Source of the DNA: Escherichia coli
Lineage (GTDB): Bacteria > Pseudomonadota > Gammaproteobacteria > Enterobacterales > Enterobacteriaceae
Reading direction: 5' to 3' (one strand)
Assembly: GCF_044324785.1 (NCBI RefSeq)
Contig: NZ_CP172127.1
Length of the DNA: 64,000 nt
The position numbers and the translations under genes are program-made. The notes under the pieces are model-generated. The model did not search any database and had not been told where the DNA came from. It saw only the letters and a list, made by a program, of their open reading frames with translations. This document shows positions 30,586 to 53,685 of the stretch, in pieces. Position 1 is the first letter of the stretch; each line of letters starts with the position of its first letter.

Positions 30586-31116
30586 ATGGCTATCACTGGC
30601 ATCTTTTTCGGCAGCGACACCGGTAATACCGAAAATATCGCAAAAATGATTCAAAAACAGCTTGGTAAAGACGTTGCCGATGTCCATGACATTGCAAAAA
30701 GCAGCAAAGAAGATCTGGAAGCATATGACATTCTGCTGCTGGGCATCCCAACCTGGTATTACGGCGAAGCGCAGTGTGACTGGGATGACTTCTTCCCGAC
30801 TCTCGAAGAGATTGATTTCAATGGCAAACTGGTTGCGCTGTTTGGTTGTGGTGACCAGGAAGATTACGCTGAATACTTCTGTGACGCATTGGGCACCATC
30901 CGCGACATCATTGAACCGCGCGGTGCAACCATTGTTGGTCACTGGCCAACTGCGGGCTATCATTTCGAAGCATCAAAAGGTCTGGCAGATGACGACCACT
31001 TTGTCGGTCTGGCTATCGACGAAGACCGTCAGCCGGAACTGACCGCTGAACGTGTAGAAAAATGGGTTAAACAGATTTCTGAAGAGTTGCATCTCGACGA
31101 AATTCTCAATGCCTGA
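30586..31116 (+). CDS. fldA: Flavodoxin 1
   Basis: Start [16 protein letters not shown] at 30586 within ORF 30469..31116; 176 aa. Confidence 0.95.
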
Positions 31117-31321
31117 TGTGATGCGGCGTAGACTCATGTCTACGCCGTATTAATAGATAATGCCAATCAAAATAATTGCTACAAATTTGTAACTTTTGCT
31201 GTTGTACCTGTACAATGTCCCGGTGTTCAAGTGGCCTTGCCGTTGTAAATGTAAGCAGTGCCACGTTTTTATTAACAATATTTGCCAGGGACTTGTGGTT
31301 TTCATTTAGGCGTGGCAATTC

Positions 31322-31340
31322 TATAATGATACGCATTATC
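31322..31340 (+). promoter_or_regulatory. Fur box at the uof-fur promoter
   Basis: TATAATGATACGCATTATC matches Fur consensus GATAATGATAATCATTATC at 16/19 positions. Confidence 0.6.
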
Positions 31341-31412
31341 TCAAGAGCAAATTCTGTCACTTCTCCTAATGAAGTGAACCGCTTAGTAACAGGACAGATT
31401 CCGCATGACTGA
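31326..31412 (+). CDS. uof: Upstream ORF of fur (leader peptide Uof)
   Basis: 28-codon ORF MIRIISRANSVTSPNEVNRLVTGQIPHD ending in TGA that overlaps the fur ATG. Confidence 0.6.
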   Translation: MIRIISRANSVTSPNEVNRLVTGQIPHD

Positions 31413-31867: not shown

Positions 31868-31897
31868 AAAGCCAACCTGCGGGTTGGCTTTTTTATA
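31868..31897 (+). terminator. Intrinsic terminator after fur
   Basis: AAAAGCCAACCtgcgGGTTGGCTTTTTTAT. Confidence 0.75.
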
Positions 31898-44641: not shown

Positions 44642-44718
44642 GGCTACGTAGCTCAGTTGGTTAGAGCACATCACTCATAATGATGGGGTCACAGGTTCGA
44701 ATCCCGTCGTAGCCACCA
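44642..44718 (+). tRNA. metT: tRNA-Met (CAU), elongator type
   Basis: 77-nt cloverleaf-compatible sequence, anticodon loop CTCATAA, 3' CCA encoded. Confidence 0.9.
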
Positions 44719-44726
44719 TCTTTTTT

Positions 44727-44811
44727 GCGGGAGTGGCGAAATTGGTAGACGCACCAGATTTAGGTTCTGGCGCCGCAAGGTGTGCGAGTTCAAGTCTCGC
44801 CTCCCGCACCA
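44727..44811 (+). tRNA. leuW: tRNA-Leu (UAG)
   Basis: 85-nt sequence with long variable arm, anticodon loop TTTAGGT, CCA end. Confidence 0.9.
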
Positions 44812-44834
44812 TTCACCAGAAAGCGTTGTACGGA

Positions 44835-44909
44835 TGGGGTATCGCCAAGCGGTAAGGCACCGGTTTTTGATACCGGCATTCCCTGGTTCGAATCCAGGTA
44901 CCCCAGCCA
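44835..44909 (+). tRNA. glnU: tRNA-Gln (UUG)
   Basis: 75-nt sequence, anticodon stem CCGGT/ACCGG with loop TTTTGAT, CCA end. Confidence 0.9.
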
Positions 44910-44924
44910 TCGAAGAAACAATCT

Positions 44925-45001
44925 GGCTACGTAGCTCAGTTGGTTAGAGCACATCACTCATAATGATGGGGTCACAGGTTCGAATCCCGTCGTAGCCACC
45001 A
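44925..45001 (+). tRNA. metU: tRNA-Met (CAU), elongator type, second copy
   Basis: Identical to 44642..44718. Confidence 0.9.
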
Positions 45002-45049
45002 AATTCTGAATGTGTCGAATAAGTTCGGCAAATTCACAAACCAATTTGT

Positions 45050-45124
45050 TGGGGTATCGCCAAGCGGTAAGGCACCGGATTCTGATTCCGGCATTCCGAG
45101 GTTCGAATCCTCGTACCCCAGCCA
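45050..45124 (+). tRNA. glnV: tRNA-Gln (CUG)
   Basis: 75-nt sequence, anticodon loop TTCTGAT, CCA end. Confidence 0.9.
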
Positions 45125-52607: not shown

Positions 52608-53516
52608 ATGCAATTACGTAAACCTGCCACAGCAATCCTGGCCCTGGCGCTTTCCGCAGGACTGGCACAGGCAGATGACGCCGCCCCGGCAGCGGGCAGT
52701 ACTCTGGACAAAATCGCCAAAAACGGTGTGATTGTCGTCGGTCACCGTGAATCTTCAGTGCCTTTCTCTTATTACGACAATCAGCAAAAAGTGGTGGGTT
52801 ACTCGCAGGATTACTCCAACGCCATTGTTGAAGCAGTGAAAAAGAAACTCAACAAACCGGACTTGCAGGTAAAACTGATTCCGATTACCTCACAAAACCG
52901 TATTCCGCTGCTGCAAAACGGCACTTTTGATTTTGAATGTGGCTCTACCACCAACAACGTCGAACGCCAAAAACAGGCGGCTTTCTCTGACACTATTTTC
53001 GTGGTCGGTACGCGCCTGCTGACCAAAAAGGGCGGCGATATCAAAGATTTTGCCGACCTGAAAGGCAAAGCCGTAGTCGTCACTTCCGGCACTACCTCTG
53101 AAGTTTTGCTCAACAAATTGAATGAAGAGCAAAAAATGAATATGCGCATCATCAGCGCCAAAGATCACGGTGACTCTTTCCGCACCCTGGAAAGCGGTCG
53201 TGCTGTTGCCTTTATGATGGATGACGCTCTGCTGGCCGGTGAACGTGCGAAAGCGAAGAAACCAGACAACTGGGATATCGTCGGCAAGCCGCAGTCTCAG
53301 GAAGCCTACGGTTGCATGTTGCGTAAAGATGATCCGCAGTTCAAAAAGCTGATGGATGACACCATCGCGCAGGTGCAGACCTCCGGTGAAGCGGAAAAAT
53401 GGTTTGATAAGTGGTTTAAAAATCCCATTCCGCCGAAAAACCTGAACATGAATTTCGAGCTGTCAGACGAAATGAAAGCACTGTTCAAAGAACCGAATGA
53501 TAAGGCACTGAACTAA
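52608..53516 (+). CDS. gltI: Glutamate/aspartate ABC transporter periplasmic binding protein
   Basis: ATG at 52608 after AAAGGA RBS; signal peptide MQLRKPATAILALALSAGLAQA; 302 aa. Confidence 0.9.
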   Translation: MQLRKPATAILALALSAGLAQADDAAPAAGSTLDKIAKNGVIVVGHRESSVPFSYYDNQQKVVGYSQDYSNAIVEAVKKKLNKPDLQVKLIPITSQNRIPLLQNGTFDFECGSTTNNVERQKQAAFSDTIFVVGTRLLTKKGGDIKDFADLKGKAVVVTSGTTSEVLLNKLNEEQKMNMRIISAKDHGDSFRTLESGRAVAFMMDDALLAGERAKAKKPDNWDIVGKPQSQEAYGCMLRKDDPQFKKLMDDTIAQVQTSGEAEKWFDKWFKNPIPPKNLNMNFELSDEMKALFKEPNDKALN

Positions 53517-53672
53517 TTACAAGAACCAGGGGCGGAAATTCCAGCCCTCTCGATTGTTACGTAGCACGGACAGACTATACGCCTGATGGTCGTTCCCCAT
53601 CGGGCCTGAAAACCGCAATACGCTGGGTAACAATCTTCGAGGGTAGCAGTTAACGCTGCTACCCTCTTTTTT
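53512..53672 (+). ncRNA. sroC: Candidate SroC sRNA (processed from gltI-gltJ spacer)
   Basis: 169-bp gltI-gltJ intergenic region ending in strong terminator; SroC is described at this position in E. coli/Salmonella; 5' end not determinable from sequence. Confidence 0.4.
53637..53670 (+). terminator. Intrinsic terminator in gltI-gltJ spacer
   Basis: GAGGGTAGCAGttaacGCTGCTACCCTCTTTTTT. Confidence 0.8.
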
Positions 53673-53685
53673 CTGGAGTAGATTT

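Follow-up and report, generated by a model that had tools for sequence, protein, structure and literature searches.

The region preceding fur in the window (the whole 64,000-nt stretch of DNA that was analysed) is the E. coli uof-fur leader, lying in the fldA-uof-fur locus. The feature is already known and annotated, and its description as the uof leader in the initial annotation was correct but ordinary: RefSeq annotation, a match to the NCBIfam model NF011344 and near-identity to E. coli K-12 all bear it out. Very probably, it is the known compact control region of fur in which about 50 bp are used as both DNA and RNA. The sequence anatomy, the identity with annotated uof, the overlap of promoter and operator, the RyhB complementarity and the conservation pattern were computed here, and Fur binding, translational coupling, RyhB repression and the effect of MiaB are taken from the K-12 literature.

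Results

Identity of the Leader

The 361 nt around the site, where the window reads ...TTCTATAATGATACGCATTATCTCAAGAGC..., have a match of at least 95% identity in 5424 of the 5426 complete genomes of E. coli, one of which is 100% identical. The genes named by RefSeq at the matched region are fldA, uof ("fur leader peptide") and fur, and the annotation of the fully identical genome was mapped onto the window to give the gene boundaries listed in Table 1. The arrangement in K-12 is identical, and uof is there b4637, the "RyhB-regulated fur leader peptide" (EcoCyc b4637). The uof peptide matches the NCBIfam equivalog NF011344 "fur leader peptide" over all of its residues (1-28 of 28) with 81.3 bits, above the cutoff of 71, and an E value of 3.1e-23. 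A search of Rfam gave no family for the uof-fur leader.

When the leader was aligned with that of K-12 over 350 nt (-290 to +60 of the fur start), two positions differed. One is at -148 relative to the fur start. The other lies in uof, which shares 86 of 87 nucleotides and 27 of 28 amino acids with the K-12 ORF, the sole residue change being S14P. The uof allele of the window is found unchanged in 393 of the 5424 complete E. coli genomes. The other genomes of this set, all covered with at least 95% identity, have alleles that depart from it by a few nucleotides at most. All of 25 matches sampled across the E. coli ranking were full-length and ungapped over uof.

Table 1. Features of the fldA-uof-fur region, numbered by position in the window
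Feature	Position	Strand	Basis
fldA (flavodoxin 1), upstream gene	30586-31116	+	RefSeq annotation mapped onto the window, ORF list, PMC4161252
Upstream sigma-70-like promoter, TTGTAA-18-TACAAT, candidate Puof	31187-31216	+	Consensus scan, 9/12
Core fur promoter, TTTTCA-17-TATAAT	31299-31327	+	Best promoter-like match in the region, 10/12 (consensus scan)
RyhB-complementary stretch over the uof translation-initiation region	31308-31355	+	In silico duplex with K-12 RyhB
Predicted Fur box (operator), TATAATGATACGCATTATC	31322-31340	+	16/19 consensus match; covers the -10 hexamer and the uof ATG
uof, 28-codon fur leader ORF, MIRIISRANSVTSPNEVNRLVTGQIPHD and stop	31326-31412	+	ORF list, RefSeq, K-12, NF011344
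uof codon 6, TCA (Ser)	31341-31343	+	Read from the sequence
Conserved RNA hairpin in uof, codons 11-18	31357-31377	+	Folding and covariation
uof codon 14, CCT (Pro); TCT (Ser) in K-12	31365-31367	+	Comparison with K-12, C versus T at -40
fur Shine-Dalgarno core, AGGA	31391-31394	+	Read from the sequence
Overlap of fur start and uof stop, ATGACTGA	31405-31412	+	Read from the sequence
fur, ferric uptake regulator, 148 aa	31405-31851	+	ORF list, RefSeq, NF006999 (309 bits)
Likely fur intrinsic terminator, AGCCAACC-TGCG-GGTTGGCT then TTTTTT	31870-31895	+	Read from the sequence

The genes form an operon, ybfE-fldA-uof-fur, with three promoters (PMC4161252), and transcripts reading through from the fldA promoter carry uof-fur. 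At the other end, a simple terminator scan did not list the candidate fur terminator of Table 1. A 10-bp GC-rich stem-loop, CGGCGTAGAC-TCAT-GTCTACGCCG, is situated directly after the fldA stop at 31124-31147 and is not followed by a T-tract. A stem at this position is kept in most of ten aligned genera, with differing loops, and it may be a partial terminator or a processing or stability element between fldA and uof-fur.

Two further observations concern other parts of the window. A tRNA cluster at 44642-45124 consists of five genes, Met-Leu-Gln(UUG)-Met-Gln(CUG). In K-12, the corresponding cluster has seven (metT-leuW-glnU-glnW-metU-glnV-glnX), and the strain of the window probably is without one glnUW-type and one glnVX-type tRNA copy. 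The sRNA sroC (Rfam RF00369, 174.8 bits) is found at 53512-53674 on the + strand, downstream of gltI as expected in E. coli.

Fur Box and Promoters

The Fur box that had been noted at 31322-31340 is confirmed as TATAATGATACGCATTATC on the + strand, with 16 of 19 positions matching the consensus GATAATGATAATCATTATC. No other site on the two strands of the 64-kb window matches with at most three mismatches. By chance, 0.01 such matches are expected, and one of 100 shuffles gave one. By its consensus match and its position over the -10 hexamer, TATAATGATACGCATTATC is predicted to be a Fur operator. Fur binding at this operator is described in the literature (PMC7867234, which credits de Lorenzo 1988 and Zheng 1999), where the Pfura operator likewise overlaps its promoter. 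The overlap of the box with the start of a short ORF also holds: the ATG at 31326-31328, within the motif TATAATG, opens the 28-codon frame. This overlap is built in, since the consensus GATAATGAT, and with it every canonical Fur box, contains an ATG.

The hexamer TATAAT at 31322-31327 doubles as the -10 of the Fur-repressed fur promoter. Both TTTTCAT and TATAAT are kept across Enterobacteriaceae, and TATAATG was found in the fur loci of 72 of 80 Enterobacterales species. With start-site positions inferred from promoter consensus and from statements in papers, transcription from this proximal promoter is expected to begin at about 31333-31335, which is 6-8 nt after the -10 and places the start 7-9 nt beyond the first base of the uof AUG. 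Published work places Pfur "within the uof ORF" and describes transcripts from both Pfur and Puof (PMC6191717), the latter promoter lying upstream of the uof ORF (PMC6191717, PMC7867234). The candidate Puof has its -10 at 31211-31216, and a transcript starting at about 31223 would include the uof start codon. Its -35 block, GCTACAAATTTGTAACTTT, and its -10, CTGTACAAT, are invariant in 10 genera. As proximal transcripts would start downstream of the uof AUG, only those from the upstream promoters (Puof and fldA/ybfE) could use uof, and coupling would be limited to a subset of fur mRNAs. With the Fur box placed over a promoter whose transcripts do not carry the uof AUG, Fur repression and uof coupling would therefore act on different transcript populations.

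A highly conserved block, ATAGATAATGCCAATCAAAATAATTGCTACAAATTTG at 31153-31192, lies just upstream of the candidate Puof and reaches into its -35. Within it, the 19-mer at 31156-31174 matches the Fur box at 14 of 19 positions. It was considered as a second Fur box and rejected, because its spacing, ATAG-N7-CAAT-N7-ATTG-N7-TTTG, looks more like an OxyR-type site beside the upstream -35. The block may thus correspond to the OxyR site that has been reported for fur. In E. coli TW14425 (NZ_CP127265.1), the interval between fldA and uof carries an IS1A insertion (1748-2445 of the extracted locus, equivalent to about 31182 in the window). The element sits directly before the -35 of the candidate Puof; it cuts the conserved upstream block and separates fur from fldA read-through.

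The uof/fur Junction

The uof frame, MIRIISRANSVTSPNEVNRLVTGQIPHD, runs for 28 codons from its ATG to the stop TGA at 31410-31412, and the fur start codon is at 31405-31407. The two ORFs overlap by 8 nt. The stop codon had been said to overlap the fur start codon itself; the overlap of the frames stands, and the stop begins 3 nt after the start codon. The shared sequence ATGACTGA also supplies a TGA in the third frame (as ATGA), and consequently an upstream ORF in either of the frames that fur does not use ends there. According to published work, fur translation is linked to that of uof, a 28-aa uORF (PMC7534054, PMC12683245, PMC7466049).

The region AACAGGAC, which contains the fur Shine-Dalgarno sequence, is invariant among the aligned Enterobacteriaceae leaders. 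The spacer between AGGA and the fur ATG is 10 nt, which is unusually long, and this poor spacing suggests that fur translation may depend largely on ribosomes delivered by uof. For uof, a good Shine-Dalgarno sequence was not found, the nearest candidates being an AGG 15 nt and a GUGG 10 nt upstream. Folds of the leader from both putative transcription starts showed no extra stability over shuffled sequences (z -0.38 and +0.08), and a strong structure that sequesters the fur ribosome-binding site was dropped for this reason. Because no unusually stable fold was found, we infer that coupling by termination and reinitiation at ATGACTGA is favoured over a strong inhibitory structure.

RyhB and MiaB Inputs

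RyhB prevents initiation at uof and thereby reduces Fur synthesis (PMC7534054, PMC12683245). Positions G44 and C45 of RyhB are needed for this repression, and G44C45 mutations abolish the repression of both uof and fur (PMC6191717). The duplex predicted between 31308-31355 and nt 37-77 of K-12 RyhB has an energy of -22.0 kcal/mol with opening costs excluded. It consists of three short helices, formed on the mRNA side by GGC.GUGGC, by UAAUGAUAC, which contains the uof AUG, and by GAGCAA. The last of these, at 31345-31350, is predicted to pair with U42-C47 of RyhB, so that G44 faces C31348 and C45 faces G31347. The duplex is consistent with the G44C45 requirement, and likewise with a statement in PMC3018821 by which the published site extends to the RyhB terminator stem. 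It is a modelled reconstruction, distinct from the published drawing.

Other pairings were set aside. Unconstrained folding of RyhB with the leader gave unrealistic duplexes of 80-130 nt. In a windowed scan, the best site for the RyhB core (nt 29-55) was 31244-31272, with -17.9 kcal/mol, about 2 SD below the background mean of the window (-10.3, SD 3.8). This site is upstream of uof and outside the region described in the literature, and its significance is doubtful.

Codon 6 of uof is UCA in the mRNA. This codon is preferentially decoded by tRNA-Ser(UGA) that has been methylthiolated by MiaB, a mode termed "iron-responsive decoding", and its MiaB-dependent reading ties Fur synthesis to iron (PMC7466049, PMC11448259).

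The uof Frame in Related Species

The initial annotation had described the uof arrangement as conserved. This holds for the sampled E. coli genomes, but the frame is disrupted in Salmonella enterica, Citrobacter sedlakii, Klebsiella oxytoca and Raoultella. We compared the fur loci of 80 Enterobacterales species and called the ORF that opens at the ATG of TATAATG coupled when it reaches the fur start. It is coupled in 43 of the 80 species, mostly with 28 or 29 codons; in 24 it ends early, and in 4 it continues in frame into fur. The frame is intact in E. albertii and in most Citrobacter, Enterobacter, Kosakonia and Kluyvera. In Mangrovibacter, Buttiauxella and some Cedecea, a coupled ORF runs in the other frame and ends at the ATGA. 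Single-nucleotide indels break the frame in S. enterica, Klebsiella, Raoultella and some Citrobacter, and it is also broken in Atlantibacter and others. The promoter/Fur-box core is retained across the 80 species, whereas the reading frame is not. These broken frames limit the generality of the mechanism and leave the identity of the E. coli feature unchanged.

In six S. enterica assemblies, the Fur box is identical to that of the window, and a 1-nt deletion gives a 16-codon ORF with its TGA at -30. This ORF ends 27 nt before the fur ATG, and uof and fur do not overlap. Among 65 Enterobacteriaceae, the distance from the ATG to fur changed at least 20 times, with a shift of frame in at least 16 cases, and coupling was gained or lost at least 11 times. 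The counts are approximate, being taken from a neighbor-joining tree of two genes only, fldA and fur. In four loci (from Enterobacter sp. R1, Buttiauxella and Dryocola), the ATG of TATAATG is in the fur frame with no intervening stop, and long transcripts could therefore encode a Fur protein with 22-23 extra N-terminal residues.

Codon periodicity was absent from 24 distinct ungapped 28-codon uof sequences, in which the variable columns of codons 2-16 number 11, 9 and 9 at codon positions 1, 2 and 3. The UCA at codon 6 is replaced by proline codons (CCA or CCG) in Enterobacter, Kosakonia and Phytobacter. In E. coli, codon 14 is polymorphic: besides the two alleles in Table 1, a third, TTT (Phe), occurs in another E. 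coli locus, and residue 14 can be serine, proline or phenylalanine. The comparison of 80 species gave no sign of selection on the uof peptide. Outside the lineages of Escherichia, Citrobacter, Enterobacter and Kluyvera, it gave none on the frame either.

A Covarying Hairpin inside uof

The hairpin within uof has the stem UCACUUC (31357-31363)/GAAGUGA (31371-31377) and a hypervariable 7-nt loop at 31364-31370, in which the polymorphic codon 14 sits. Alignment-free folding of the segment from -60 to -25 gave a structure in each of the 53 distinct leaders from Enterobacteriaceae (mean z -2.15), and nearly all of these have the 3' arm of the main stem ending between -27 and -32. The stem variants include ACUUCC/GGAAGU, GCCC/GGGC, GCUCC/GGAGC, CGCUCA/UGAGCG and CUCCC/GGGGG. 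The arms have been replaced wholesale with their complementarity kept, which points to an RNA structure and away from a protein operator.

In an alignment fitted to a covariance model, 88.5% of the cells are paired compared with 80.0% in shuffles, and none of 500 shuffles equalled this value. Double-change cells number 34 against 9.2 in shuffles, with compensatory changes in six of the eight pairs. The covariation score, computed on the same model-fitted alignment, is 0.175, and slid controls reach at most 0.058. RNAalifold missed the hairpin when given a plain MAFFT alignment of 20 diverse leaders, since the divergent 5' arms had been aligned wrongly. The frame-breaking 1-nt indels of Salmonella, C. 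sedlakii, Citrobacter sp. Awk4 and Enterobacter sp. Bisph1 all fall in the hairpin loop. The hairpin might serve in stability or as a platform for Hfq or RyhB, or it might be an element that is melted by ribosomes translating uof.

Discussion

The uof leader precedes the gene for the master iron regulator of enteric bacteria. It is a textbook case of an sRNA, RyhB, that acts indirectly through an upstream ORF, and of a tRNA modification that relays iron status. In the reading that we consider very probable, iron-loaded Fur bound to the box across the -10 at 31322-31327 would repress the proximal fur promoter at the DNA level and so give autoregulation. At the RNA level, the same sequence would serve as the uof start region, on the longer, upstream-initiated transcripts only. 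Ribosomes would start at the AUG at 31326, read 28 codons and stop at the UGA at 31410-31412, just past the fur AUG. Translation of fur would then depend largely on these uof-delivered ribosomes, by termination-reinitiation, by unfolding of the leader or by both. Under low iron, RyhB would pair over the uof start and lower uof translation, and Fur synthesis would fall indirectly. Reading of UCA-6 by the MiaB-modified tRNA would be a second iron-dependent input.

A rival reading holds that uof is an incidental ORF. Its ATG may simply follow from the Fur consensus GATAATGAT, and from a -10 hexamer followed by G, in which case the frame would be unselected and have no role in fur expression. The Fur consensus itself holds the ATG, the frame is lost repeatedly in relatives, 3-periodicity is absent, the Shine-Dalgarno sequence is weak, transcripts of the proximal promoter would not contain the uof AUG, and by our own estimate a random frame of 28 codons is open about a quarter of the time. 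However, K-12 experiments report coupling and RyhB control through uof (PMC7534054, PMC12683245, PMC7466049, PMC6191717), and uof is full-length in the sampled E. coli genomes, while in each of the 5424 a match of at least 95% identity covers it. An incidental ORF is for these reasons very improbable. That uof encodes a small protein acting in trans is less probable still, to the point of being hardly credible. The annotated CDS has its own NCBIfam model, and its C-terminal half, EVNRLxTGQIPHD, is well kept in the genera that keep the frame, but the codons in question coincide with the 3' arm of the hairpin and the fur ribosome-binding region and remain conserved at the nucleotide level in species with a broken frame. 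Much variation is seen in residues 2-15, and residue 14 differs within E. coli.

The hairpin supports a reading that refines the main explanation and does not exclude it. The structure at 31357-31377 and its flanks would be a functional RNA, either a stability element or platform for Hfq or RyhB, or an element that locally slows fur initiation. The uORF would matter only because ribosomes from the AUG at 31326 melt the hairpin, and the position of the stop, which is at the fur start in E. coli and at -30 in Salmonella, would be secondary. At least five different stem sequences occur at the same location, with the covariation statistics given above, and the frame-breaking indels of four named relatives all lie within the loop. 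The peptide sequence is weakly constrained, and most of the early-stopping Enterobacteriaceae ORFs still cross the 5' arm (at least 13 codons, with stops at -39 to -21), although ORFs of at least 13 codons are not rare by chance. On the other hand, the fur Shine-Dalgarno sequence and AUG are outside the hairpin, whose 3' arm ends 13 nt before the AGGA, and the hairpin was recovered with a model-fitted alignment and missed by RNAalifold on an unfitted one. We regard a leader centred on the hairpin as unlikely, but far less so than an incidental ORF, and retain the compact uof-fur control region as the preferred explanation.

A related proposal concerns what is selected in the family as a whole, and we put it forward tentatively, as a serious possibility that falls somewhat short of being probable. 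The selected unit in Enterobacteriaceae may be the promoter/Fur-box core together with the covarying hairpin 28-48 nt upstream of the fur AUG, and not the uof frame. The termination of uof on fur in E. coli would then be a labile, lineage-restricted overlay that was lost in S. enterica by a single-base deletion. If this is true, Salmonella and Klebsiella may have RyhB-uof-Fur and MiaB-uof-Fur circuits that differ or fail, and the hairpin would have a function still to be assigned.

For E. coli, confirmation of the leader in the window adds nothing new. The residual value lies in the nuance of promoter and uORF, in the labile uof frame, lost in Salmonella, and in the covarying hairpin. Broken frames, substitutions that are not codon-like and the hairpin could matter when the E. 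coli circuit is extrapolated to Salmonella or Klebsiella. The 1-nt loop deletion of Salmonella provides a cheap natural experiment on what coupling requires.

Comparison with Known Systems

One of the closest known systems is the E. coli K-12 uof-fur leader, reportedly the subject of work by Vecerek, Moll and Blasi in 2007. The window shares with K-12 uof (b4637) the gene order ybfF-ybfE-fldA-uof-fur-chiQ-chiP, the 28 codons, the ATGACTGA overlap, the Fur box, the UCA at codon 6 and the RyhB-complementary GAGCAA. It differs in S14P (TCT to CCT at 31365), which is in the hairpin loop, and in the change at -148.

The leader of S. enterica has the same Fur box, -10, upstream promoter, hairpin stem and fur ribosome-binding region. 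It differs by the 1-nt loop deletion, which puts the ATG of TATAATG in the fur frame and leaves 16 codons with a TGA at -30. Like other autoregulated Fur-box promoters, the window has a 19-bp match to GATAATGATAATCATTATC directly over the -10 of a good sigma-70 promoter. In contrast to these, its operator is also transcribed from upstream, and the resulting RNA is the start region of a uORF and the target of an sRNA.

The stop codon within a few nucleotides of the downstream AUG resembles coupling by overlapping stop and start codons of the AUGA or UGAUG type. In its indirect repression of the downstream gene by blocking initiation at a short uORF, the system resembles the action of GcvB on thrL and ivbL (PMC7534054). 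It differs in having no attenuator terminator after uof, and in that the control is translational and does not work through transcription attenuation.
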